DNA of 64,000 bases from a bacterium (GTDB lineage: Bacteria > UBP6 > UBA1177). The DNA is taken from positions 1,709-65,708 of the forward strand of contig JAFQZM010000013.1 of the NCBI GenBank assembly GCA_017405875.1. The letters are read 5' to 3'. This document shows, in pieces, positions 3,432 to 15,804 of this stretch (positions are counted from its first letter, which is position 1; each line of letters opens with the position of its first letter). Both the position numbers and the translations under genes were made by a program. The notes beneath the pieces are model-generated. The model saw nothing but the letters and a program-made list of their open reading frames with translations. It had not been told where the DNA came from and did not search any database.

Positions 3432-3901
3432 AGAAAACAGAAAAAACCAATGTCATGCGTGTTCTGGAGAGCAAAAAAATCTCTTACACCGCGCATGAAT
3501 ACGAGCCCGACGCCACTTTGACAGGCGTTCAGATCGCCGCGATCTTAGGCGAAGACACGTCCAATGTTTTCAAAACGCTCGTCACCCAGGGAAAAAGCGG
3601 CCAGCACTATGTTTTTGTAATTCCCGTCCACGCCGAGCTTGACCTCAAAAAAGCGGCGAAAGCATCAGGTGAAAAATCGATCGAAATGATAAAACAGAAA
3701 GAGCTTCTTCCGCTCACCGGATATGTCCACGGCGGCTGTTCGCCGATCGGAATGAAAAAACAGTTCCCGACATTCCTGCACATAACCGCGGAAAATCTCG
3801 AAAAAATCTATGTCAGCGCAGGGAAAGTCGGCTTTCAGGTCGAGCTTTCACCGGTTGATCTCATCAATGCGGCGGGATGCGTTTTGGCTGATATCGTGTA
3901 G
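3428..3901 (+). CDS. ybaK: YbaK/ProX-family aminoacyl-tRNA (Cys-tRNAPro) deacylase
   Basis: ~158 aa with YbaK-like sequence ([11 protein letters not shown]). ATGA overlap with the guaA stop. Confidence 0.8.
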
Positions 3902-3911
3902 ACATTCAACT

Positions 3912-3935
3912 ACGTCATTTTTGCGAAAATGACGT
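3912..3935. promoter_or_regulatory. Perfect 24 bp palindrome ACGTCATTTT-TGCG-AAAATGACGT; candidate terminator hairpin for ybaK or operator ahead of the RM operon
   Basis: 10 bp stem / 4 nt loop read directly, 11 bp after the ybaK stop and ~135 bp upstream of hsdM. Confidence 0.3.
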
Positions 3936-4068
3936 AATTGACTTGATTTTTGAGGCAGTTGAATAGGATTTTTTCATCCAAATCAATTGATTTTTCATAA
4001 GAAATATGACAAATTTGAATGGAAATTTGGTGACTTGAATGAGACAAGGCAAAATAAAGGAGTAAAAC

Positions 4069-5646
4069 ATGATCACGGGTGAACTTAAAAACAAAATCGA
4101 CAGTCTTTGGGAAATTTTCTGGACGGGCGGGCTCACGAATCCGCTTGATGTCATCGAGCAGATGACCTATCTGATGTTTATCCACGATCTTGACGAGACT
4201 GACAATCTCCGTGCGAAAGAGGCTGCGATGCTGGGCTTGCCTTATGAGAGCATTTTTGCCAAGGAGGTGCATGCCGGCGAGCGCACTGTTGACGGAAGTA
4301 TGCTCAAGTGGAGCGCTTTCCACGATTTTCCGGCTGCGAAGATGTATTCCACGGTGCAGGAATGGGTTTTCCCGTTCATCAAAAACCTGCACGGCGACAA
4401 GGAAAGTGCCTATTCAAAATATATGGGCGACGCTATTTTCAAGGTGCCGACTCCTCTCATGCTTGATAAGATCGTGACGGCGATGGACGGTATCTACGAG
4501 CAGATGGCACAGCTCAAGACCACGGACACACGCGGCGATGTCTATGAGTATCTCCTTTCCAAAATCGCGACTGCCGGTGTAAACGGGCAGTTCCGCACTC
4601 CGCGCCACATTATCCGGATGATGGTCGAACTTATGGATCCCAAGGCTGACGAGATCGTCTGCGACCCTGCCTGCGGCACATCGGGCTTTCTTGTTGCTGT
4701 CAGCGATTACCTCAAGGAGAGGCGCAAAGAGGAGGTTTTCTTCAACCGTCAGAACAAAGACCACTACATGAACTGCATGTTCCACGGTTTTGATATGGAC
4801 CGCACGATGCTCCGTATCGGCGCGATGAACATGATGACGCACGGTGTTGACAATCCTTTCATCGAATACCGCGACAGTCTTTCCGACCAGAATCCAGACC
4901 GCGACAAATATTCCCTTATTCTCGCGAATCCCCCTTTCAAAGGGAGTCTGGACGCGGATATCGTCTCGACCGATCTGCTTAAAGTCTGCAAAACCAAAAA
5001 GACGGAACTTCTCTTTTTAACACTTTTCCTGCGTATGCTCAAAGTGGGCGGACGCTGTGCATGCATCGTTCCCGACGGCGTTCTTTTCGGGTCTTCGACT
5101 GCGCACAAAGCCATCCGCAGTGAACTTATTGAAAACAACCGTCTTGAAGCGGTTATTTCGATGCCCTCAGGCGTGTTCAAACCGTATGCTGGTGTTTCGA
5201 CTGCGATCCTCATCTTCACCAAAACAGGGCACGGCGGCACCGACAAAGTCTGGTTCTACGACATGAAAGCTGACGGATACAGCCTTGATGACAAACGCAG
5301 TCCCGTCAAAGAAAACGATATTCCGGATATAATTCAGAAGTTTACCCTCTCAGTCGCTTCGCGCCAGCTCTCCCAAAGGGCGAGCCAAGAACTTGCCTCC
5401 CACTCAGGGGGAGGTGTCGCCGCAGAAAGCGGTGACGGAGAGGGCGACCGCACCTCGCAATCCTTCTTCGTTCCGAAAGATGAAATCGTCGCCAACGACT
5501 ACGACCTTTCCATCAACAAATACAAACAAACGGAATATGTGGCGGTAGAATACCCGCCCACAAGCGAAATCATGGCAAAAATCGATGAACTCGAAAGCGA
5601 GATCCAGACAGAACTTGCAGAGTTGAAGAAGATGATTGGAGAATAG
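4069..5646 (+). CDS. hsdM: Type I restriction-modification system, N6-adenine DNA methyltransferase subunit M
   Basis: 525 aa with an HsdM N-domain, AdoMet-binding region and the NPPF catalytic motif (LILANPPFKGS). RBS GGAG upstream. Carries an in-frame 40-codon repeat insertion (see 5344-5452). Confidence 0.95.
   Translation: MITGELKNKIDSLWEIFWTGGLTNPLDVIEQMTYLMFIHDLDETDNLRAKEAAMLGLPYESIFAKEVHAGERTVDGSMLKWSAFHDFPAAKMYSTVQEWVFPFIKNLHGDKESAYSKYMGDAIFKVPTPLMLDKIVTAMDGIYEQMAQLKTTDTRGDVYEYLLSKIATAGVNGQFRTPRHIIRMMVELMDPKADEIVCDPACGTSGFLVAVSDYLKERRKEEVFFNRQNKDHYMNCMFHGFDMDRTMLRIGAMNMMTHGVDNPFIEYRDSLSDQNPDRDKYSLILANPPFKGSLDADIVSTDLLKVCKTKKTELLFLTLFLRMLKVGGRCACIVPDGVLFGSSTAHKAIRSELIENNRLEAVISMPSGVFKPYAGVSTAILIFTKTGHGGTDKVWFYDMKADGYSLDDKRSPVKENDIPDIIQKFTLSVASRQLSQRASQELASHSGGGVAAESGDGEGDRTSQSFFVPKDEIVANDYDLSINKYKQTEYVAVEYPPTSEIMAKIDELESEIQTELAELKKMIGE
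5344..5452. repeat. Inverted pair of the ~48 bp hairpin repeat family, inserted in-frame within hsdM
   Basis: ccctctcagtcgcttcgcgccagctctcccaaagggcgagccaag followed by its imperfect reverse complement. Encodes TLSVASRQLSQRASQELASHSGGGVAAESGDGEGDRTSQS inside HsdM without breaking the frame. Confidence 0.6.
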
Positions 5647-5648
5647 GG

Positions 5649-7046
5649 ATGGAAAATCAGAATATTGAATACAAGCAGTCTTGGCGTGACGAATATCTCA
5701 AATGGGTCTGCGCCTTTGCAAATACAGACGGAGGCAGGCTTTATATCGGTGTAAAGGATGACGGCACTGTCTGCGGCGTGGATGATGCACACAAACTGAG
5801 CGAAGATATTCCGAATAAAATCCGTAATTCCATGGGTCTGATCTGCGCTGTCAATCTGCTTTCCGAGAACGGTCTTGATTATTTTGAAATCGTTATCGAA
5901 AAATATCCGTTTCCTGTAAGTTATCACGGCAGATATTACAAGCGCACAGGCTCTACGATTCAGGAAGTAAGCGGTATCGAGCTGGATAAAATGATTCTGG
6001 GAGTCCAGGGCCGCACATGGGATTCGGTTCCGGTTCCGCATATTTCGGTTGCAGATCTGGAAAATGACGCGATCAGACTTTTCAAGAAAAAGGCTAAAGA
6101 ATCGGGTCGTCTTGATGACGAGGCTTTAGATGTGACAAACGAAACTCTCATTCAGAATCTGCACATTACGGAAGGTCACTACTTGACCCGTGCCTGTATG
6201 CTTGCGTTCCATCCCGACCCTGAAAGATGGGTAACAGGCGCATATATCAAAGTCGCCTATTTTGAAAATGATGCAGACATTCTCTATCAGGATGAAATTC
6301 ACGGCCCGCTGATTCTTCAGGTCGAAAAAACAATGGAGCTGATTTATACAAAGTATATGAAAGCTCTCATTTCCTATGATGACCTCTACAGAAAGGAAAC
6401 CTTTTTCTTCCCGAAATCGGCGTTTCGTGAGCTGCTTCTGAATGCCGTGATCCACAAAGATTATCTTTCCACCACGCCGATTCAGATCCGTATTTACAAA
6501 GACAAAATCCGTCTCTGGAACGACGGAGCGCTTCCCAAAGAAGTTCCGGTCGAGGATTTGTTTAAGGAACACGTTTCAAAACCGTGCAATCCGAACCTTG
6601 CGAATGTCTTCTTCAAATGCGGCATGATTGAAAGCTGGGCTCGCGGCTTCAACAAAATTACAAGATACTGCGAAGAGGAAAACGCAAAACTACCGGTAAT
6701 CGACCTTTCTCTCGGCGGTGTAACTGCCCGCTGCTATGCGTCGGATGTCTATCTGGCACTGATGAATGAGTATGAAAATGCAGAAAAGTTCACAGAAAAT
6801 GACCAGAAAACTGTGGAAAAGACAGAAAAAGTGCCCAAAAGGTGCCCAAAAAGTGCCCAAAAGACATATCTTGCTATTGTAAAAAATCCCAACGCAACTA
6901 TCGAAGAATTAAGCAAAGAACTTGGGATATCTGAACGAGCTGTAAAAAAACATCAAAAATTACTCAAGGATGCAAATTTGATAACACGTCTGGAAGGAAG
7001 AAAATCTGGTTATTGGGAGATTGTGCAGGGGGAAGAGAATGAGTAA
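5649..7046 (+). CDS. AlbA_2/Schlafen-like putative DNA-binding domain protein with a C-terminal HATPase_c_4-like region and a winged-HTH (RecG-like transcriptional regulator family commonly embedded in Type I RM loci)
   Basis: N-terminus EYKQSWRDEYLKWVCAFANTDGGRLYIGVKDDGTVCGV is the AlbA_2 'divergent AAA' signature. C-terminal HTH (IEELSKELGISERAVKKHQKLL). Sits between hsdM and hsdS. Contains an in-frame 11 bp triplet repeat near its 3' end. Confidence 0.75.
   Translation: MENQNIEYKQSWRDEYLKWVCAFANTDGGRLYIGVKDDGTVCGVDDAHKLSEDIPNKIRNSMGLICAVNLLSENGLDYFEIVIEKYPFPVSYHGRYYKRTGSTIQEVSGIELDKMILGVQGRTWDSVPVPHISVADLENDAIRLFKKKAKESGRLDDEALDVTNETLIQNLHITEGHYLTRACMLAFHPDPERWVTGAYIKVAYFENDADILYQDEIHGPLILQVEKTMELIYTKYMKALISYDDLYRKETFFFPKSAFRELLLNAVIHKDYLSTTPIQIRIYKDKIRLWNDGALPKEVPVEDLFKEHVSKPCNPNLANVFFKCGMIESWARGFNKITRYCEEENAKLPVIDLSLGGVTARCYASDVYLALMNEYENAEKFTENDQKTVEKTEKVPKRCPKSAQKTYLAIVKNPNATIEELSKELGISERAVKKHQKLLKDANLITRLEGRKSGYWEIVQGEENE
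6781..6862. repeat. Short-period motif array (AGTTCACAGAAAA, ACTGTGGAAAAG, 3x GTGCCCAAAAR) inside the 3' part of the AlbA_2-like CDS
   Basis: Read directly; same motif repertoire as the arrays at 7058-7280 and 10978-11200. Translated in-frame as KTVEKTEKVPKRCPKSAQK. Confidence 0.6.
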
Positions 7047-7057
7047 AAAAATGTCCG

Positions 7058-7280
7058 AAAAAACTGTGGAGAAGAACTGTGGAGAAAAACAGAAAACTGT
7101 GGAGAAAACTAGGGAGAAAATCGGACTGAAGGTCACCAAAAAGGTCACCGAAAAGGTCACTATAAAAACTACCCAGAAAATAAAAAGTGGCCAAAAAAGT
7201 GGCCTGAAAACGCTAAAAAGTGGCCAGAAAAACGGCCTAAAAAGTTCGCAGAAAGGTTCACAGAAAAGTGGACAGAAAAT
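7058..7280. repeat. Array of ~12 bp units of form [variable 6-mer]+(A)GAAAA, each 6-mer repeated 2-3x in tandem (ACTGTGGAG, ACTAGGGAG, GGTCACC x3, ACTACCCAG, AGTGGCC x3, GTTCACAG, AGTGGAC)
   Basis: Read directly, between the AlbA_2 gene end and the hsdS start. ORF 7021-7290 (K-rich tetrapeptide repeats KTVE/KVTK/KSGQ) is its translation. Confidence 0.7.
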
Positions 7281-7296
7281 TGCGGGGTGACGAGAG

Positions 7297-8439
7297 ATGA
7301 AAACGGTAAGACTTGGAGATATATGCGATATTGTTTCTGGCGGAACCCCATCGCGGTCAAAGCCAGAATTTTGGCAGGATGGTACTATTCCTTGGATTAA
7401 GATCGGAAACATAAGGGGAAAATATGTATCGAAAGCAGATGAATACATTACAAAGGCTGGTTTGGATGCTTCTTCTGCAAAGATGCTGCCCAAAGGAACA
7501 ATTCTCTATACTATCTTTGCGACGCTGGGAGAGGTCTGTATTCTGGACATTGAAGCTTGCACAAATCAAGCTATTGCTGGCATTTCAATGCGAGAGTCAT
7601 CAGGAACTAAATCTGACTATTTATACTATTATCTAAAATCAAAAAAAAGCTATGTTAATGGAATTGGTCGTGGTGTTGCCCAAAACAACATTAACATGTC
7701 AATGCTACGTGATTTTAGAATACCATTACCAACAATTGAGCAACAAGATAAAATTGTTTCTGTCCTTGACAGAATATCCTCAATAATAGCACTACGTCGC
7801 CAGCAGCTCACCGCCCTCGATGAGCTCGTCAAAGCAAGGTTTGTGGAGATGTTTGGGGATGGGAAATATGATTTGAAGTCGGTTGAAGAATTGTGTTCTG
7901 AAATAGTAGACTGCCCACACACAACGCCTAAATATGATGGGGAATTGAAAAATCCTGCTATCAGAACTTCAGAAATAAAAAAGGGTTATATTGCATGGGA
8001 ATCTATGAAGTTTGTTTCTGATGATGAATATGAAGAAAGAATTGCCAGACTTCGCCCAGAAGCTGGAGATATCGTATATGGACGAGAAGGAACATTTGGA
8101 AATGCAGCAATACTTCCTGCAGGATATAAATTTTGTTTAGGACAGAGAGTTATGCTACTTAGACCAAATTATAAAAAAACTTCTTCCGAATATTTACTTC
8201 ATGCCGTTATCTCAGATGATGTTTACAAACAGGCCTTGGATAAAAATAATGCTTCTACTGTGGCACATGTAAATGTGAAAGATGTAAAGCAGTTTAAAGT
8301 ACCTTTGCCACCATTAGATTTACAGAAACGATTTGCTGATTTCGTTTCTCAGGTTGACAAAACTAAAGCAAACATTCAAAAATCCCTTGAAAAATCGCAG
8401 CTTTTGTTTGATAGTTTGATGCAGGAATATTTTGGGTAG
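7297..8439 (+). CDS. hsdS: Type I restriction-modification system specificity subunit S (two target-recognition domains)
   Basis: 380 aa with duplicated TRD architecture and conserved central/C-terminal HsdS repeats (LPPLDLQKRFADFV..). Position between hsdM and hsdR. Confidence 0.9.
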   Translation: MKTVRLGDICDIVSGGTPSRSKPEFWQDGTIPWIKIGNIRGKYVSKADEYITKAGLDASSAKMLPKGTILYTIFATLGEVCILDIEACTNQAIAGISMRESSGTKSDYLYYYLKSKKSYVNGIGRGVAQNNINMSMLRDFRIPLPTIEQQDKIVSVLDRISSIIALRRQQLTALDELVKARFVEMFGDGKYDLKSVEELCSEIVDCPHTTPKYDGELKNPAIRTSEIKKGYIAWESMKFVSDDEYEERIARLRPEAGDIVYGREGTFGNAAILPAGYKFCLGQRVMLLRPNYKKTSSEYLLHAVISDDVYKQALDKNNASTVAHVNVKDVKQFKVPLPPLDLQKRFADFVSQVDKTKANIQKSLEKSQLLFDSLMQEYFG

Positions 8440-8448
8440 GAGGGAAAA

Positions 8449-9828
8449 ATGAACAGCATTGATAAAATACAAGAACTTTTTAAGCAATTATCTGAGAATC
8501 GTGACAAATTATCTGTCATTCTGCCTCAGTTATACCCGATAGCATTAGAGCAAAAAGACTTCGTCGGCTTCTGTTTGCTATATCTATGGGGAACACCGTT
8601 GGGTACATGCAACGAAGCGAATCAGTTATATTTTCAAGATGCTACTAACATGATGCGTTTAGCAGGAATAAGTGAAGAAGACGCTACGAAGATCGAAGCA
8701 ACAGCTGCGAAACAATATTTGTCAATGAGAGACATAAACAAAGATAATGTCCCGAAAGATAAGATAAAAATATGGTCTGCACGAGAACTTGAAGATTTCC
8801 TTCAGCGTTGCGATGTGCAAATTGCCGACTTGAAAGTTCCGGACGGATTAAATCCACTTGCTTCTTATCATATGGAGCAGAGGATTAACTATCAAAAATT
8901 ATCAATCCGTTCAAGCAAAACACAGGCTGAAAAGCAGTATGCTATTTTACATCAGTTAATAACCTCAAAACTTGCTGAGTATCAGACAAAATTATCACAA
9001 ATGGAAGAAATAGGAACAACGCAGGAGAACAACATGACACCATATGAGAAATTAAGGAAATTACGCGACGAAATAGATGAGTTGATTGATAAACAGATGA
9101 CATATTCATTGCCTGAATTCAAAAACTGGCATAAAGAACTCGGATTATTTTTGTCAGAAAAATACGGCACACAAAGCAAGCAATATAAGAATTTTATCGG
9201 GCGGAGTTTTGCACCAAGTCTTCCGCATACTTCAGCACAAGATTATATTGATTCTTGCAAGCGTGGTTTGGAAATAACTCGAACCGAATTATCAGCATAC
9301 TTGGATGACATGAAAGGAGAAACTACGGAATTAGCAATAAATATCCCTAAAGAAAAAGGAGAAATAAGCATGGGAAAAGAAACAAAGGACAGAAAAAAAG
9401 TTTTTATTGTTCACGGGCATGATGAAGCAAAAAGACGGGAATTAAAAGAATTCCTAAAAGACAAACTTAAATTAGATCCTATTGTGTTATCTGACCAATT
9501 GCCCGAAAAAACACTGATTGATAAATTCGAAAAATATGCAAAGCAGTGTTCATACGCTTTTGTTATATATACTCCTGATGATCAAGTCTCCAATCAAGAA
9601 CAAAAATATTTTCAAGCTCGTCCGAATGTTATTTTTGAGTTGGGTTGGTTCTATGCACATTTTGCGGGTTCTCCTAATATTTGTATACTGAAGCAAGAGA
9701 CGGATGCTAAAGATAACTTGATTTTTTCAGATCTACAAGGAGTCGAATATCTTACTTTCAGAAAAGATATTGAGGAAAAATTTTATAAAATTCAAGAAAT
9801 ACTTAAGGCAAGAGGAATTATTAACTAA
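8449..9828 (+). CDS. Two-domain protein: ~300 aa alpha-helical N-terminal domain of unknown function plus a C-terminal TIR-like nucleotide-binding domain (COG4271 / PF10137, CAP12-PycTIR type)
   Basis: C-terminus KKVFIVHGHDEAKRRELKEFLKDKLKLDPIVL...YAFVIYTPDDQ...QARPNVIFELGWFYAHFAGSPNICILKQ...SDLQGVEYLTF follows the PF10137 consensus as I recall it (VFIVHGhD...vvLlTpDD...RaRqNVifElGyF...vEiPSDlsGv.Y), including the conserved Glu. Excellent RBS AGGAGGGAAAA. Very AT-rich. 10 bp after hsdS. Confidence 0.7.
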   Translation: MNSIDKIQELFKQLSENRDKLSVILPQLYPIALEQKDFVGFCLLYLWGTPLGTCNEANQLYFQDATNMMRLAGISEEDATKIEATAAKQYLSMRDINKDNVPKDKIKIWSARELEDFLQRCDVQIADLKVPDGLNPLASYHMEQRINYQKLSIRSSKTQAEKQYAILHQLITSKLAEYQTKLSQMEEIGTTQENNMTPYEKLRKLRDEIDELIDKQMTYSLPEFKNWHKELGLFLSEKYGTQSKQYKNFIGRSFAPSLPHTSAQDYIDSCKRGLEITRTELSAYLDDMKGETTELAINIPKEKGEISMGKETKDRKKVFIVHGHDEAKRRELKEFLKDKLKLDPIVLSDQLPEKTLIDKFEKYAKQCSYAFVIYTPDDQVSNQEQKYFQARPNVIFELGWFYAHFAGSPNICILKQETDAKDNLIFSDLQGVEYLTFRKDIEEKFYKIQEILKARGIIN

Positions 9829-9858
9829 GACGAGGGACGCAATTGACAGGAGAACAGA

Positions 9859-10857
9859 ATGGGTAAAATCGTTGAAATAGCTAAAATATTAGTTTCACCT
9901 ACTGAAAAATTAATTGATGTAATTCGAGCTGCAATTGGTAAAGCCTATGAACCAAGATATGAGAAAAGGATGAGTGATGCTAAAGCATATGAAATTACAA
10001 CTGTTGCAAACGCATTAAGAGATTCAAGCGACATTCCTATCACATATAGTAAAGAAGGCTTGACAATGAGCACAACAGATTTTGATGAGTTCAAAAAACG
10101 AACTCAAAGCCGTTTGGCATATCAAGAGCTGACAAAACAAAAAAATATAGAGTCTGTAGCTGATTACGCCTACGCACAATTAGAAGGTGCGGCAGATGTT
10201 CCTAATGATCCTGTTGATCAAGATTGGATAAATAGATTCTTTAATTCTGTTGCTGATGTCAGCAATGAAGATATGCAACTTTTGTGGGGAAAAATTCTTG
10301 CAGGTGAAGTTAAACAACCAGGGAGCTTTTCATTGCGTACTTTGGAAACTTTAAGAAATATGAGCAAAAAAGATGCTGAACTTTTTGTTAAAATTGCTCC
10401 ATTTTTAGTTTCTATCACTTCTGACTCTCAAAAAGTACTTTCTTCAGATGACGAATTATGTGAAAAGTATGGTTTGTCTTATGGAAAGATTATTATGATC
10501 TTGGATGAATGTGGATTGATTAATTCTTCAGCATTTCTGACTTTCAATCTTTCGCTTACTAAAGAACAAGAAATTCCTGTGTATACTCTCGAAAGAGTTG
10601 CTTTGCTGAGAGGACTAAACGATAACAGTGTAAAAATTTCATTTGGGGTCCACACTTTAACAAAAGTAGGATTGGAATTGTTTAATCTTATTGATGCAAA
10701 ACCAAACAATGAATATTTTAGTGATTTCATAAAGAACATAGAATCAGCTAACAAAGGAAAAGTTGTTGCAACTATTCATAGTGTAAATACGATACAAAAT
10801 GGTGGCATAAATTATAAAAAGGAACCTATCGAAATTATTAAAAGTGATAATAAATAA
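9859..10857 (+). CDS. DUF2806-like protein (uncharacterised; assignment from recalled motif)
   Basis: 332 aa; central DQDWINRFFNSVADVSNEDMQLLWGKILAGEVKQPGSFSLRTLETLRNMSKKDAELF resembles the DUF2806 (PF10987) core as I remember it. RBS AGGAGAACAGA. 30 bp after the TIR-like gene, same strand. Confidence 0.5.
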   Translation: MGKIVEIAKILVSPTEKLIDVIRAAIGKAYEPRYEKRMSDAKAYEITTVANALRDSSDIPITYSKEGLTMSTTDFDEFKKRTQSRLAYQELTKQKNIESVADYAYAQLEGAADVPNDPVDQDWINRFFNSVADVSNEDMQLLWGKILAGEVKQPGSFSLRTLETLRNMSKKDAELFVKIAPFLVSITSDSQKVLSSDDELCEKYGLSYGKIIMILDECGLINSSAFLTFNLSLTKEQEIPVYTLERVALLRGLNDNSVKISFGVHTLTKVGLELFNLIDAKPNNEYFSDFIKNIESANKGKVVATIHSVNTIQNGGINYKKEPIEIIKSDNK

Positions 10858-10977
10858 ATTGCAAGGCAAACCAATGACCGGCTTTATTAAACAAATTCTC
10901 TACGCAGCGTGTAGCGAATTAAGCAGGTCACATATCCGTGAAACAGCGGCGGTTATTGCTTCTTTTGGCAATAGCAC

Positions 10978-11200
10978 CAAAAAACTACCAAGACAAATGC
11001 GAAAAAACTAGGGTAGAAAGCGAAAAAACTAGGGTGGAAAATGAGAAAACTAGGGTAAAAAACTGTGGAGAAAACCAAGAAACTGTGGAGAAAAACTGTG
11101 GAGAAAACTAAAACAATTACCCAAAAAACTACCCAAAAAAGTTCACAGAAAAGTACAGTGAAAGGTACAGTGAAAAGTACGGTGAAAAGTTCGGAAAAAA
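10978..11200. repeat. Second ~12 bp motif array (ACTAGGGT x3, ACTGTGGAG x3, ACTACCCA x2, GTTCACAGAAAA, GTACAGTG x2, GTACGGTG, GTTCGG)
   Basis: Read directly. Shares ACTGTGGAGAAAA, ACTAGGG, ACTACCCA and GTTCACAGAAAA units with the 7058-7280 array, so the two arrays bracket hsdS plus the two embedded genes. ORF 11065-11388 is its translation. Confidence 0.7.
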
Positions 11201-11226
11201 TAATGGAACTCGTTAAAATTGTAGAA

Positions 11227-11272
11227 CCCCTCTCAGTCGCTTTGCGACAGCTCTCCCTAAGGGCGAGCCAAG
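11227..11272. repeat. Copy of the ~48 bp hairpin repeat family
   Basis: cccctctcagtcgctttgcgacagctctccctaagggcgagccaag. Confidence 0.6.
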
Positions 11273-11364
11273 AAAGAGGAGCGAGTCTTAGTAGTTACTA
11301 CCAAGACAAATGTGGAAAAACGAATTTAAAAAAATGCGGTAATTTTGGGGTGTTAGAAATAAAA

Positions 11365-11557
11365 GTGAACTTTAAAAGTGTACTTTAAGTAGCCTTTAAG
11401 TGTACTTTAAAAGTAGACTTTAAGTAGACTTTAAGTAGCCTTTAAGTGTACTTTAAAAGTATACTTTAAGTAGCCTGAGTAGACTTTGAGTAGACTTTGA
11501 GTAGACTTTGAAGTAGACTTTGAGTAGACTTTAAGTGGTCTTTAAGTAGACTTTGAA
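11365..11557. repeat. Tandem array of ~17 copies of an 11 bp unit GTAGACTTTRA (variants GTGTACTTTAAAA, GTAGCCTTTAA, GTGGTCTTTAA)
   Basis: Read directly; period 11 (occasionally 12-13). Ends ~35 bp before the hsdR start codon. Confidence 0.8.
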
Positions 11558-11589
11558 ATGGAAGACGAGAAGGTAAATGCGGAGAAAAC

Positions 11590-14397
11590 ATGATGCCGGA
11601 AGAAGTTAAAAAGTTTGATGTTTCAAACCCCTCTCAGTCTGCTGCGCAGCCAGCTCTCCCTAATGGCGAGCCAAGCGAATACGCGACCCGCAAAAAATAC
11701 ATCGACACGATGCTGCGTGATGACGGCTGGATAGAGGGAAAAAACTGGCTCAACGAATACGAACTCCCTGGTATGCCGAACAAGTCGGAAGTGGGTTTTG
11801 CCGACTATGCGCTGTTCGGTGACGACGGCCGCATCCTTGCTGTAATCGAGGCGAAACGCACCTGCGTCGATGTTTCAAAAGGGAGGCAGCAGGCAAAACT
11901 TTACGCCGATCTGATTGAGAAGAAGCAGGGATTCCGCCCGGTTGTTTTTCTTTCAAACGGTTTCGAGACGCGGATCGTTGACAACCAGTATCCTGAGCGG
12001 AAGGTCGCAAGGATCTATTCAAAACGCGATCTTGAAAAGTGGTTCAATCTTCAGCGGATGCGCAGCATCCTGAAAAACATTATGGTGGATAGAAATATCG
12101 CCGGACGTTACTATCAGGAAGCTGCAATAAAAGCGGTATGCGACAGCTTCGGAGAGAAAAACCGCAGAAAGGCTCTCCTTGTCATGGCGACAGGTTCCGG
12201 CAAAACAAGAACCGTCATCGCTCTCGTAAAAGTGCTGATGGACAAGGGCTGGATCAAAAACGTCCTCTTCCTCGCAGACAGAAATTCCCTCGTGACCCAG
12301 GCGAAACGCAGCTTTGTGAACCTTCTCCCCGATCTTTCTGTCACAAATCTCTGCGAAGAAAAATGCAACATAGAAGCTCACTGCGTCTTTTCGACTTACC
12401 AGACAATGATAAACTGCATCGATTCAGTGCGCGACAAAGAAGGAAGAGTCTTTTCCTGCGGACACTTCGACCTTCTGATATGCGACGAAGCGCACCGCTC
12501 GATCTACAACAAATATCAGGAAATTTTCAACTACTTCGATTCTCCGCTCGTAGGTCTCACCGCGACACCGAAAGACGAAATCGACAAAAACACCTACGAG
12601 GTTTTCGAGCTTGAAAACGGCGTTCCGACTTACGGATACGAGCTGGCGCAGGCAGTAAAAGACGGCTATCTGGTCGATTTTCTTTCAGTCGAAACGACAC
12701 TCAAATTCATCCAGCGCGGAATAGTTTACGACGAACTGAGCGATGAAGAAAAAGAGGAATACGAAAAGACTTTTGCCGATGAAAGCGGCGAAATCCCCGA
12801 AAGCATCACCCCGTCAGCACTGAACGACTGGATCTTCAACGAAGACACCATCCGCAAAGTCCTGCGAATCCTGATGAACGACGGACTTAAAATCGACTAC
12901 AACAGCAAAATCGGCAAAACGATCATCTTTGCAAAAAACCACAGACACGCCGAAAAAATCCTCGAAGTTTTCGGGAAGGAATTTCCCCACCTGAACAACT
13001 ACGCCAAAGTGATCGACAACACCATAAACTATGCCCAGAGCGCGATCGACGAATTCTCGGACGCAAAAAAACTGCCGCAGGTAGCCATTTCAGTCGATAT
13101 GCTCGATACCGGAATCGATGTTCCCGAAGTGCTGAATCTGGTTTTCTTCAAAGTCGTTCTCAGCAAAGCAAAATTCTGGCAGATGATAGGACGCGGAACA
13201 CGCCTATGCCCGGGACTTATCGACGGATTCGACAAGACAAAATTCTATATCTTCGATTTCTGCGGGAACTTCGAGTTTTTCCGCATGAACAAAGGGCGCG
13301 CAAGTGCCGAAACTGTGGCTCTGCAAGGGGCTCTTTTCCTTCTCAAAGCGCAGATCGCCTTCAAACTTCAGGAGATCATCTGGCAGACACCTGAACTCAT
13401 CGCTTTCCGCAAAAAACTGGTTGAGGAAATGGTGAAAAAAGTGCGCGAACTCGACCGCGGCAATTTTGCCGTAAGACAGCATCTGAAATATGTCGAACTC
13501 TATTCAGACCCTGAAAACTACAAGGCTTTGACTTACGAAGAGACACTCAACATGAAGCGCGAACTCGTGCCGCTTATCCAGCCCGACATCGATGATGTCA
13601 AAGCACTGCGTTTCGATGCCCTTCTTTACGGAATAGAGCTTGCATTATTAGCAGGAAACAAATACGGCGCGGCGCGGAACGACCTCATGAAAAAGGTGAA
13701 TGCCGTGGCAAATATCGCCAATATTCCCGCAATTATGATGCAGTCAGAACTTATAAACAAAATCCTCCACACATATTACCTGGATACCGCAGGAATCATG
13801 GAATTTGAGGAGATCCGCATAAATCTGCGCAATCTGATGACGTATGTCAACTATTCGCACAGTCTATACGACACGAATTTCAGCGACGAAGTGCTTTCGA
13901 CAAAATGGAGCGTCGCAGAAGCCGAAACTACCTATCTCGCAACTTACCGCGAACGGGCGGAATACTTTGTCCGCAAGCACCAGAACGAAGGAGTCATCGC
14001 CAAACTCAAAAGCAATCTTCCTCTCACAGGCAAAGATATGACCGATCTCGAGGCGATACTCTGGAGCGAAGCAGGAACCAAGGAAGATTACGAAGCTTTG
14101 TATAAAGCAAAACCGCTCGGCGAATTCGTGCGTGAAATCGTCGGACTCGACATGAATGCGGCAAAAGAGGCTTTCGCGGAATTTCTGAACAACACCAGCC
14201 TTGACAGCCGCCAGATCTATTTCGTCAACCAGATCGTGGAATACATCGTTCACAACGGCATGATGAAAGACCTTTCAGTCCTTCAGGAAGCACCGTTTAC
14301 CGACCGCGGCAGCATCGTGGAAGTCTTCACCGACCTTTCAGTCTGGGCAGGCATCCGCAAAGTAATTGAGCAGGTCAACGCAAACGCAGCGGCGTAA
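11590..14397 (+). CDS. hsdR: Type I restriction-modification system restriction subunit R (SF2 helicase/endonuclease)
   Basis: 935 aa with an N-terminal RKKYIDTMLRDDGW HsdR motif, PD-(D/E)xK region (VIEAKR), Walker A ATGSGKTRT, DEAH-like LICDEAHRS and helicase C-motifs (QMIGRGTR). The N-terminal 30 aa include an in-frame repeat copy. Confidence 0.95.
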   Translation: MMPEEVKKFDVSNPSQSAAQPALPNGEPSEYATRKKYIDTMLRDDGWIEGKNWLNEYELPGMPNKSEVGFADYALFGDDGRILAVIEAKRTCVDVSKGRQQAKLYADLIEKKQGFRPVVFLSNGFETRIVDNQYPERKVARIYSKRDLEKWFNLQRMRSILKNIMVDRNIAGRYYQEAAIKAVCDSFGEKNRRKALLVMATGSGKTRTVIALVKVLMDKGWIKNVLFLADRNSLVTQAKRSFVNLLPDLSVTNLCEEKCNIEAHCVFSTYQTMINCIDSVRDKEGRVFSCGHFDLLICDEAHRSIYNKYQEIFNYFDSPLVGLTATPKDEIDKNTYEVFELENGVPTYGYELAQAVKDGYLVDFLSVETTLKFIQRGIVYDELSDEEKEEYEKTFADESGEIPESITPSALNDWIFNEDTIRKVLRILMNDGLKIDYNSKIGKTIIFAKNHRHAEKILEVFGKEFPHLNNYAKVIDNTINYAQSAIDEFSDAKKLPQVAISVDMLDTGIDVPEVLNLVFFKVVLSKAKFWQMIGRGTRLCPGLIDGFDKTKFYIFDFCGNFEFFRMNKGRASAETVALQGALFLLKAQIAFKLQEIIWQTPELIAFRKKLVEEMVKKVRELDRGNFAVRQHLKYVELYSDPENYKALTYEETLNMKRELVPLIQPDIDDVKALRFDALLYGIELALLAGNKYGAARNDLMKKVNAVANIANIPAIMMQSELINKILHTYYLDTAGIMEFEEIRINLRNLMTYVNYSHSLYDTNFSDEVLSTKWSVAEAETTYLATYRERAEYFVRKHQNEGVIAKLKSNLPLTGKDMTDLEAILWSEAGTKEDYEALYKAKPLGEFVREIVGLDMNAAKEAFAEFLNNTSLDSRQIYFVNQIVEYIVHNGMMKDLSVLQEAPFTDRGSIVEVFTDLSVWAGIRKVIEQVNANAAA
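11628..11675. repeat. In-frame copy of the ~48 bp hairpin repeat within the first 30 codons of hsdR
   Basis: cccctctcagtctgctgcgcagccagctctccctaatggcgagccaag encodes NPSQSAAQPALPNGEPSE upstream of the conserved HsdR N-motif. Confidence 0.55.
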
Positions 14398-14559
14398 CCC
14401 TCTCAGCCAGCGTTGCGAAGAAACCCTCTCAGTCGCTTCGCGCCAGCTTCCCCTGAGTGGGAGCCATGTGGGTGAGAGGCAAGTCTTGGCTCGCCCTTTG
14501 GGAGAGCTGTCTGCACAGCAGACTGAGAGGGCAAAGTGTCACGCAGTGACGGAGAGGGC
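14398..14559. terminator. Cluster of 3-4 copies of the hairpin repeat family in inverted orientation immediately after the hsdR stop; likely transcription terminator / island boundary
   Basis: ccctctcagtcgcttcgcgccagcttcccctgagtgggagcca ... cttggctcgccctttgggagagctgtctgcacagcagactgagaggg form a long inverted repeat, plus partial flanking copies. Confidence 0.5.
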
Positions 14560-14571
14560 ATCAGCCGATTT

Positions 14572-15804
14572 TTAAAACACCGCTGAAACCAGCACGAAAA
14601 GCCAGTGTGCGGAAATGCCGGCACAGAGACCGCCGATGGTGTGGCTGAATATCGCCTTGCCGATGAGTTCTTTGCAGTCGAGGCTGTCCATCATCGAAGT
14701 GTGGGTGCTCAAATATCCGCTCCAGCACATGCACATTGCGGTAAAAACTGCGATGTCGCAGGGACCGACGAGTTTTGCGTGAACGAGGCGTTCCGCAAGG
14801 CTGAGTGAAGCTCCTGCCGCTCCGAGAGCGGTTACCGGAATACCGATGGCTTCGGGGGACGAGAAACCGAAGAGCGGTTTCAATATGAAATTTACTTTTG
14901 CCGCGAGTACGGGAAGAAGCCTTATGCCTTCGTAGGCCGCGCCGGTGTAGGCTCCGCTTTCCGAGGGGCCGTTGATGAGCATCATGACGAGCGTGCAGAT
15001 GACGAGGACGCCGGGAACTATCGCAAGTCCCATTTCAACACCGCCGTGGCCGCCTTCAAGTATCGCGTCGATGATTCGTCTGCCGAGACCTCCAGCTCTG
15101 ACCGGACGCATATGCAGAGGCGGCATTTCCATTGTCTGACAGTCAGGAACCATTTTTTCTTTCGTGCCGAAAATCTTCTTCGTAAATCCGAGCATTAACC
15201 TCGTGCTGATGAGGCTGCCGATGACTGCTCCGATGATACCGATTATTACTGCCATTCCGAGCGGCTGCCCCATTGCCGGAGAAAGGCTGTACATATATGA
15301 ACAGACGATAAGCCCCATTCCGAAAGCGGTTCCCAGATTGGTGAGAGCCGGGAACTGGTATTTTTTGAAAAAGCGGCGGAAGTTGTTGTCTTCGGCAAGT
15401 GCAAGTATCGCCGGATTATCTGAAAGAAATGTCGTGACGATACCGAGCGACGCGGCTCCGGGCATACCGAAAAGCGGTTTCATGAGCGGCTGGAGAAGCC
15501 TGTTTGCAAGCGAAACGAAACCGAATTCCGAAAGCAGCGCCGAGACCGAGCCCATGATGACACAGACCGCAGTCAGATAAAGGACTGTGTCAATGAGCAG
15601 GCGGTAAGCGGTGTTCATCATCGTGTTGAGCGTGTTTTCAAGCCCCATCTGGGTGGCAAAAAGGGCGAAAAATCCGAAAAATATTACGGGAAAAATAAAA
15701 GTTTCAAGCCCGAGTTCTTTTTTGTAGTAAATCTTCGAGCCGGGAATTCTCTGCATAGCGTGTTCAACCTCCGATCCAAGCAAGCCAACAACAAAAAACA
15801 GCAT
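14572..15804 (-). CDS. Polytopic membrane protein with nucleoside-recognition (Gate) domains, YjiH/SpmA-B-like
   Basis: 410 aa, hydrophobic throughout; a second Gly-rich Gate-like segment (AIVPGVLV...). Start may be the internal Met (MQRIPGS). Confidence 0.5.
   Translation of the reverse strand: MLFFVVGLLGSEVEHAMQRIPGSKIYYKKELGLETFIFPVIFFGFFALFATQMGLENTLNTMMNTAYRLLIDTVLYLTAVCVIMGSVSALLSEFGFVSLANRLLQPLMKPLFGMPGAASLGIVTTFLSDNPAILALAEDNNFRRFFKKYQFPALTNLGTAFGMGLIVCSYMYSLSPAMGQPLGMAVIIGIIGAVIGSLISTRLMLGFTKKIFGTKEKMVPDCQTMEMPPLHMRPVRAGGLGRRIIDAILEGGHGGVEMGLAIVPGVLVICTLVMMLINGPSESGAYTGAAYEGIRLLPVLAAKVNFILKPLFGFSSPEAIGIPVTALGAAGASLSLAERLVHAKLVGPCDIAVFTAMCMCWSGYLSTHTSMMDSLDCKELIGKAIFSHTIGGLCAGISAHWLFVLVSAVF

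Follow-up and report, generated by a model that had tools for sequence, protein, structure and literature searches.

Do two genes that lie side by side between the specificity and restriction genes of a Type I restriction-modification (RM) operon form one defence system, watched over by the restriction enzyme, or does each of them act for itself? The question is raised by a bacterial locus in the window analysed here, a 64,000-nucleotide (nt) stretch of contig JAFQZM010000013.1, in which gene A (8449-9828, + strand, 459 aa), an open reading frame (ORF) whose C-terminal part matches the TIR-like family PF10137, and gene B (9859-10857, + strand, 332 aa), a DUF2806 protein, occupy the interval between hsdS and hsdR. 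The original prediction, made from the DNA letters, took the two genes as a single cassette with a role in abortive infection, guarded by the RM complex. Our analysis instead makes it fairly likely that the hsdS-hsdR interval amounts to a small defence island, a cargo slot that is hypervariable and that in this strain carries gene A and gene B as independent single-gene modules for abortive infection.

An obligate two-gene system, in which the TIR-like and DUF2806 proteins act jointly, with sensing or regulation falling to one and the effector role to the other, would fit the layout of genes A and B, which share a strand, lie 30 nt apart and have a ribosome-binding site (RBS) each. Indeed, the pairing is seen again in a second lineage (L008/L009), in which the TIR-like protein P0004 is followed by the DUF2806 protein P0218. 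Genomic neighbourhoods, however, make such a joint system quite improbable. We compared 80 metagenome loci with a DUF2806 gene, whose six-frame ORFs were scanned with iterated hidden Markov models for hsdM, hsdS, hsdR, the TIR-like domain and the gene A modules, and 80 genome loci retrieved by the TIR-like motif. None of the former had a TIR-like neighbour (0/80), and none of the latter had a DUF2806 neighbour (0/80). A Type I RM-type gene was present in 20 of the 80 DUF2806 loci; 12 loci run hsdM-hsdS-DUF2806-hsdR in full, without other cargo, and 7 incomplete contigs have part of that order, a set that includes several copies of one DUF2806 allele with different hsdS alleles (within L102-L109) and counts as about ten distinct lineages. 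The pairing recurs only in L008/L009, where P0004 is without the N-terminal domain of gene A. P0218 is about 51% identical to gene B while the TIR-like domain of P0004 is nearly identical to that of gene A, and the pairing has therefore been either kept or re-formed.

Elsewhere the partners change. AbiH, not a DUF2806 gene, comes after gene A's closest full-length relative, and in a sister strain a DUF2806 gene accompanies an unrelated 442-aa protein. In addition, the DUF2806 system Belisama works as a single gene, and PADLOC models PDC-S35, which gene A resembles, as a single-gene candidate. Neighbourhood counts and strain comparison thus rule out genes A and B as a conserved pair, and the reading of the two-gene cassette as one system is not supported. 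What does stand is the hsdS-hsdR interval as a recurrent home for the TIR-like and DUF2806 families, each taken separately.

Strains of the same species show how the interval changes while its surroundings do not. Sister loci, reached via proteins within 90% identity of the window HsdR, share the same guaA-tRNA_edit-hsdM neighbourhood; their hsdM and hsdR are about 95-98% identical at the DNA level (92-98% for hsdR across strains with other cargo), whereas hsdS and the cargo are replaced (blastn), and each of the two genes is swapped independently. The window and L239, which are 99.8% identical, carry the TIR-like gene and the DUF2806 gene. L001 carries a TIR-like gene of another subtype, AbiH and two AlbA_2 genes; L235/L236 carry the 442-aa protein and a DUF2806 protein at 40% identity to gene B; L237 has an AlbA_2 gene only; and L238 has a 245-aa HEPN-like protein, DUF3800 and DUF559. 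The predicted AT-rich cargo region and its modular acquisition agree both with this replacement between near-identical hsdM and hsdR genes and with the drop in GC content, which is 33-39% over 7500-11500 versus 46-53% in hsdM and hsdR.

Single domains move as well as genes. The 245-aa protein of L238 (6193-6930) is 84% identical to the gene after DUF2806 in L008 (3455-4192), and its C-terminal module shares 77% identity with the HEPN-like end of P0006, a bearer of gene A's N-terminal domain. That one HEPN-like module, with its RNLCDH motif, forms the C-terminus of a 245-aa protein encoded in the slot and is elsewhere attached to gene A's N-terminal domain shows directly that cargo genes swap effectors. 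The 442-aa protein (6655-7983 in L235/L236) neither matches Pfam nor resembles gene A. It lies directly 3′ of hsdS, ahead of the DUF2806 gene, and is an uncharacterised candidate defence gene.

The different cassettes share two junctions (blastn). One is the hsdS 3′ end (8323-8452), which is kept in L008, L235 and L238; the other is an 82-bp palindromic element (11225-11306), followed by a tandem array, within a spacer that has matches in L001, L005, L008 and L238. Shared junctions around differing cargo therefore give the slot the look of a recombination-driven site that exchanges whole genes and single domains. The repeat-laden spacer of 732 nt between gene B and hsdR (10858-11589, + strand; sequence, Tandem Repeats Finder and blastn) is probably the right-hand recombination junction. 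Its tandem array (11382-11554), just upstream of the hsdR start, has a period of 11 (ACTTTAAGTAG) and 15.5 copies, or alternatively 35- or 46-nt units (Tandem Repeats Finder). Similar arrays precede AlbA_2 or hsdR in L001 and L005, and the array might mark a junction of recombination or serve as a regulatory or phase-variable tract; no Rfam family was found in 3800-14700, the array included.

Two further kinds of repeat mark the locus. A small palindromic repeat (core CTCAGTCGCTTTGCGACAGCTC) is present in four copies in the window, versus zero expected by chance, at 1848-1869, 5349-5448 (within hsdM), 11225-11306 and 14423-14556. The copy within hsdM coincides with a 29-aa in-frame insertion in HsdM (about aa 429-457, TLSVASRQLSQRASQELASHSGGG...) that is missing from orthologues otherwise 98-99% identical. 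Low-complexity repeats coding for K, T and E (units such as AAAACTGTGGAG and AAAAGTACAGTG) flank the hsdS-cargo block on both sides, at 7040-7290 and 11000-11200, and resemble the linker ahead of the winged helix-turn-helix (wHTH) in AlbA_2 proteins. The right-hand copy, together with the ORF at 11065-11388, is probably the remnant of an AlbA_2-type gene like those found before hsdR in L001 and L237.

What, then, are the two genes that the slot holds? An alignment of 32 relatives divides gene A into three parts (all + strand): an N-terminal helical domain (aa 1-190, 8449-9018) without a Pfam match, a middle helical module (aa 196-315, 9034-9393) and the TIR-like domain (aa 317-438, 9397-9762). 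The roughly 300-aa helical stretch without a recognisable motif that had been described at the N-terminus is all helical and devoid of any sensor-domain match, but consists of two modules rather than one. The C-terminal domain was correctly named: it matches PF10137, CAP12-PCTIR_TIR, over profile positions 1-118 of 119 (Pfam, E=3e-31, 108.3 bits versus a cut-off of 24.7). Its invariant residues across the 32 sequences are G323, P352, T355, A390 and E397. The last of these (codon 9637-9639) is the glutamate of NVIFELGWF whose conservation had been predicted, and it aligns to the glutamate of VVFEFG in the solved Cap12 chains 7un8 and 9lmq. From TIR-STING work we take this residue to be catalytic, and the domain composition suggests that gene A carries a putative NAD+ hydrolase effector.

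Taken together with the TIR-like domain, the middle module (aa 196-456) matches the PADLOC profile PDLC05005, PDC-S35, over positions 1-254 of 264 (E=9e-50), and four further PDC-S35 profiles match with E=7e-34 to 6e-26. Gene A is therefore like PDC-S35 in being a single-gene TIR-like candidate with near-full profile coverage, and differs from it in the additional 190-aa N-terminal domain, which lies outside the profile and elsewhere defines a separate family of about 332 aa. Sequence comparison indicates that the protein is a mosaic. The middle module was found only in gene A and in P0002, P0003, P0004 and P0005, of which P0004 and P0005 are without the N-terminal domain. P0002 tracks gene A to about aa 325 and then continues with another TIR-like subtype; the 121-residue middle module is identical in the two proteins, and their N-terminal domains differ at scattered positions. 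In P0004, by contrast, the middle module is more divergent than the TIR-like domain. Among PHROGs, the TIR-like part of gene A led to one family of unknown function only, and NCBIfam offered nothing informative for the N-terminal or middle modules.

Pfam describes PF10137 as a CBASS/Pycsar effector domain, and NCBIfam names its Cap12 models NAD(+) hydrolases. Gene A shares with Cap12/TIR-STING and PycTIR the TIR-like family and the conserved glutamate of (V/I)FE(F/L)G. Unlike them, it is without a STING, SAVED or other cyclic-nucleotide sensor domain, and its sensor part is an unrelated all-helical region. It scores 36 and 29 bits against the NCBIfam Cap12 equivalogs, versus cut-offs of 450, and matches PADLOC PycTIR (E=2e-8) with its TIR-like part only. 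As the original prediction had noted, no cyclase or cyclic-nucleotide sensor was found nearby, that is, among the operon genes scanned with profiles (hsdM, AlbA_2, hsdS, DUF2806 and hsdR), the rest of the 64-kb window lying outside the profile searches. A role as a CBASS or Pycsar effector is accordingly ruled out by the Cap12 scores, far under cut-off, and by the lack of a sensor domain or cyclase in the scanned genes.

The N-terminal domain is new in detail and, on the basis of sequence searches, rare. An exhaustive phmmer search with aa 1-190 against 1.8 billion cluster representatives returned 28 proteins. Ten longer ones among them were scanned with Pfam, and nine of these carry PF10137, the other (P0287) a canonical TIR_2. 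The domain also makes up the N-terminus of an abundant family of proteins about 332 aa long, from metagenome-assembled genomes (MAGs) of Lachnospiraceae, Oscillospiraceae and Acutalibacteraceae, where the TIR-like domain follows it directly. In P0006 and P0020, a HEPN-like module (RNLCDH, Rx4H motif; weak Pfam HEPN match, E=0.018) takes the place of the TIR-like domain, so that the effectors fused to the N-terminal domain are PF10137, TIR_2 or HEPN-like. A sensor or regulatory role for this domain would fit such an arrangement.

Proteins that combine the N-terminal domain with the TIR-like domain occur in 11 distinct contexts, and 7 of the 11 lineages are in Type I or Type I-like RM operons. 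Within the hsdS-hsdR interval, such genes stand ahead of DUF2806 (window and L239), ahead of AbiH (L001-L004), without DUF2806 or other recognised cargo (L013), as sole cargo (L230), or 3′ of an MNT/HEPN pair (L231). Others lie 3′ of hsdS with AlbA_2 downstream (L005-L007); 3′ of a methyltransferase-S pair, an AAA_15/21 ATPase and a T5orf172 gene on a mobilisable element (L241); immediately 3′ of a DpnII Type II cassette (L011); between a YhcG gene and an integrase at a contig end (L233); 3′ of ArdC and DUF4379 on a mobile element with ArdC/Toprim (L015); and 3′ of DUF4379 in a housekeeping neighbourhood (L240). In the last two loci (L015 8338-9561, L240 4035-5972), which are unrelated, a DUF4379 gene (treble-clef zinc finger repeat) lies directly upstream of the N-terminal-domain/TIR-like gene and away from any RM operon, and DUF4379 may be a second recurrent partner or context of this family.

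These contexts bear on a guard of the PrrC kind. PrrC is masked by EcoprrI, and PARIS is triggered by Ocr. By the same logic, gene A (via its N-terminal domain), gene B or both could be bound and silenced by HsdMS or HsdMSR, until a phage anti-restriction protein releases the TIR-like enzyme and NAD+ is depleted. The position directly 3′ of hsdS, after a 9-nt spacer, matches that of prrC; the predominance of RM operons among the lineages just listed points the same way, as do the close DUF2806 relatives, about half of which are flanked by hsdS and hsdR; and a rare N-terminal domain with interchangeable effectors is the pattern expected of a dedicated sensor. We nonetheless regard control by the restriction complex as a doubtful explanation. 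Family members occur where no Type I complex is encoded nearby, namely beside DpnII (L011), on the ArdC/Toprim element with DUF4379 (L015), and beside DUF4379 and housekeeping genes (L240). The broader DUF2806 family is found in integron cassettes, prophages and conjugative plasmids, and Belisama protects as a single cloned plasmid cassette, which suggests that no partner gene is needed.

Comparison with known embedded genes leads in the same direction. Gene A is like PrrC and RloC in occupying the hsdS-hsdR slot of a Type I RM operon, where the logic of a suicidal second line is plausible. It is without PrrC or RloC domains: neither gene A nor gene B has an ABC-ATPase or anticodon-nuclease domain or a PADLOC PrrC match (Pfam, PADLOC), and the gene A family has members outside Type I RM too. 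PrrC itself is cited as embedded almost exclusively in Type I RM (embedding survey, bioRxiv 10.1101/2024.01.29.577857). Embedding in RM operons is, moreover, common among many unrelated autonomous systems, and a gene that sits inside a Type I RM, BREX or DISARM locus often proves to be a defence system in its own right (PMC11411939; bioRxiv 10.1101/2024.01.29.577857). TgvAB, for example, is GmrSD-like, is embedded in the Vibrio cholerae VPI-2 Type I RM operon, and protects independently of HsdR activity (PMC11411939). It resembles the present locus in placing two cargo genes within a Type I RM operon, with embedding as a complement to restriction; TgvA and TgvB, however, depend on one another and belong to the DNA-targeting Type IV restriction proteins, whereas genes A and B are unrelated to TgvA and TgvB and separable by comparative genomics. 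No specific report of a TIR or NADase guard of Type I restriction came up in literature searches.

Gene B was rightly likened to DUF2806: it matches PF10987 from aa 80 to 289 (10096-10725), over profile positions 1-219 of 221 (Pfam, E=6e-47, 160.6 bits versus a cut-off of 24.5). Its homologues number 1192, nearly all of about 330 aa, with PF10987 as the sole domain, and its invariant residues lie within aa 81-176 (R81, R85, Q89, N96, W123, R126, W143, G149, E150, P154, S158, R160, T161 and N167). The DUF2806 profile had no match among PDB sequences, and PHROGs has no family for DUF2806. Distant DUF2806 proteins are encoded on viral and prophage contigs and on conjugative Enterobacteriaceae plasmids of about 31-35 kb, and one distant viral member touches Abi_alpha, below threshold. 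Among the best 40 relatives of gene B, hsdS is directly upstream in 15 of the 29 with upstream sequence and hsdR directly downstream in 12 of 23; such flanking falls to zero among the next 40 DUF2806 relatives and among 60 viral loci.

The family has one validated member. Belisama is a single-gene DUF2806 abortive-infection system from the chromosomal integron of V. cholerae; it blocks phage amplification, with unrecoverable culture lysis at high multiplicity of infection, is toxic if overexpressed, and protects when a single cloned cassette is carried on a plasmid (bioRxiv 10.1101/2024.07.02.601686). Gene B is like Belisama in standing alone, with a full-length PF10987 as its sole recognisable feature, a likeness drawn from the shared domain. 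The weak Abi_alpha link of the DUF2806 family is also in line with the Belisama paper (bioRxiv 10.1101/2024.07.02.601686). Gene B differs in lying within a Type I RM operon, in a Clostridia-like MAG from gut or rumen, rather than a proteobacterial integron cassette, and in belonging to a subclade about half of whose members are flanked by hsdS and hsdR. From these comparisons, gene B is probably an independent abortive-infection gene of the Belisama type, and the presence of close relatives as sole cargo of the hsdS-hsdR slot would fit such a single-gene phenotype.

The two genes had been described as a pairing not known to be reported as a defence system. This is only partly true: DUF2806 is the Belisama domain and the TIR-like part of gene A is covered by PDC-S35, one of a set of PADLOC candidates chosen through guilt by embedding in Type I RM, BREX and DISARM (Payne et al., bioRxiv 10.1101/2024.01.29.577857). 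Both families are thus already flagged as defence. The predicted role in defence or abortive infection is likely. Gene B is best seen, from its sequence, as an apparent new member of the DUF2806/Belisama kind, and gene A as a PDC-S35-like TIR protein with an added N-terminal domain.

We postulate that the helical part of gene A would sense a cue of infection or hold the enzyme off, and that on activation its TIR-like domains would assemble and hydrolyse NAD+, so that the infected cell stops growing. Gene B, judging from Belisama, would kill or lyse the infected cell unaided. Both genes could thus provide a second line once a phage escapes restriction, neither needing the other, and direct control by HsdMSR would not be required.

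Rather than defend the cell, the cargo might be selfish, consisting of stabilising or addiction genes, or of regulators, that ride with a mobile hsdS cassette and whose toxicity maintains the RM module. AT-rich cargo is indeed exchanged en bloc with hsdS between conserved hsdM and hsdR, a toxin-antitoxin-type MNT/HEPN pair sits in the same slot elsewhere (L231), and Belisama is toxic on overexpression. We consider this very improbable, and the least likely of the readings discussed here: no antitoxin-like partner is evident, there is direct anti-phage evidence for DUF2806, PF10137 is annotated as a CBASS/Pycsar effector, and the neighbours in the slot are overwhelmingly genes of defence type.

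Several observations weigh against the view that genes A and B are two independent abortive-infection modules. The strong bias of both subfamilies to the position right after hsdS is also expected of a restriction-linked regulator. In three of the four lineages with a middle-module TIR-like protein, the next gene is of Abi type and lies no more than 30 nt away (AbiH in L001, DUF2806 in L008 and the window); numbers are small, and there may therefore be some functional coupling to a downstream partner. On the side of the individual genes, gene B falls under the cut-off of the DUF2806-related model TIGR03899 (131.6 bits versus 155.65, E=3e-38), a model that may include Belisama. Its AlphaFold2 model (predicted local distance difference test score 82) gave no match and no functional clue in a fold search against PDB, and structure searches with the N-terminal domain of gene A likewise gave no functional clue. 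Finally, a full-text search returned no paper mentioning PDC-S35, and the literature searched holds no reported test of it.

The operon that houses the cargo was correctly recognised as a collinear Type I RM operon, with Pfam matches for all three subunits. From 1.9 to 14.4 kb, the + strand carries, in order, guaA, a YbaK/tRNA_edit-like gene, hsdM, a gene with SLFN_AlbA_2, a short K/T/E-rich ORF, hsdS, gene A, gene B, the 732-nt gap and hsdR. The methyltransferase gene hsdM (4069-5646) matches N6_Mtase (Pfam, E=8e-64), HsdM_N and PADLOC MTase_I (E=6e-180); the specificity gene hsdS (7297-8439) matches Methylase_S (Pfam, E=3e-51); and hsdR (11590-14397), encoding an EcoEI-type restriction subunit, matches ResIII (Pfam, E=3e-38), EcoEI_R_C (E=1e-19), HSDR_N and PADLOC REase_I (E=1e-147). 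All three are on one strand and intact, hsdM with its in-frame insertion. Both cargo proteins are present as exact entries in NCBI nr, from a MAG, under MBQ3367586.1 (gene A, ‘nucleotide-binding protein [bacterium]’) and MBQ3367587.1 (gene B, ‘DUF2806 domain-containing protein’).

The original prediction described two tightly packed same-strand genes with strong RBSs and spacers of 10 and 30 bp. Tight packing is found between hsdS and gene A (9-nt spacer, preceded by a GGAGGG motif) and between genes A and B (30-nt spacer, preceded by AGGAG), but not between gene B and hsdR, where the long gap intervenes. Since the spacers are short and a scan of the + strand gave no terminator in the stretch from hsdS through gene A to gene B, it is plausible from the sequence that genes A and B would be co-transcribed with hsdS and the operon. 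A promoter scan returned 11 promoter-like sites versus 17 expected by chance.

The gene between hsdM and hsdS (5649-7046, + strand, 465 aa) was absent from the original prediction. It encodes SLFN_AlbA_2 (Pfam PF04326, E=2e-17), HATPase_c_4 (PF13749, E=7e-18) and a wHTH (HTH_24, E=6e-6), and has the identical location in the sister strain L235. The gene also gave weak PADLOC matches to pAgo-associated and Aga N-terminal regions and to the HTH parts of Csa3/CasR, and one to two paralogues stand ahead of hsdR in sister strains. A few kb downstream of the operon in L235 (17062-17841), the recorded annotation has a Lactamase_B-fold gene with a weak Anti-Pycsar_Apyc1 match, which by offset would correspond to about 19.7-20.4 kb on the - strand of the window; it is probably a housekeeping metallo-β-lactamase-fold enzyme.

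The locus does not reveal a new two-gene system, and the principle of defence genes embedded in RM operons is already published. It does define a small family of proteins that join a helical domain of unknown kind to a TIR-like one, and that N-terminal domain is a reasonable candidate sensor of infection or of restriction status. It is tempting to speculate, although we think it unlikely, that the N-terminal domain, encoded mostly right behind hsdS, is a dedicated monitor of RM status wired to swappable suicide effectors (PF10137 TIR-like, TIR_2 and HEPN-like). If true, this would make a PrrC-like guard family that kills via NAD+ depletion or RNA cleavage once a phage disables restriction. In a weaker form of this speculation, the middle-module TIR-like proteins would cooperate with whichever Abi gene comes next, DUF2806 or AbiH. 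For the DUF2806 (Belisama) family, the locus adds a Firmicute subclade that is embedded in RM operons. More broadly, with conserved hsdM and hsdR arms and shared junction repeats flanking cargo that differs among strains of one species, and with sensor and effector domains reshuffled between cargo genes, it shows clearly, in a natural setting, how the hsdS-hsdR interval can act as a slot where abortive-infection genes are exchanged.

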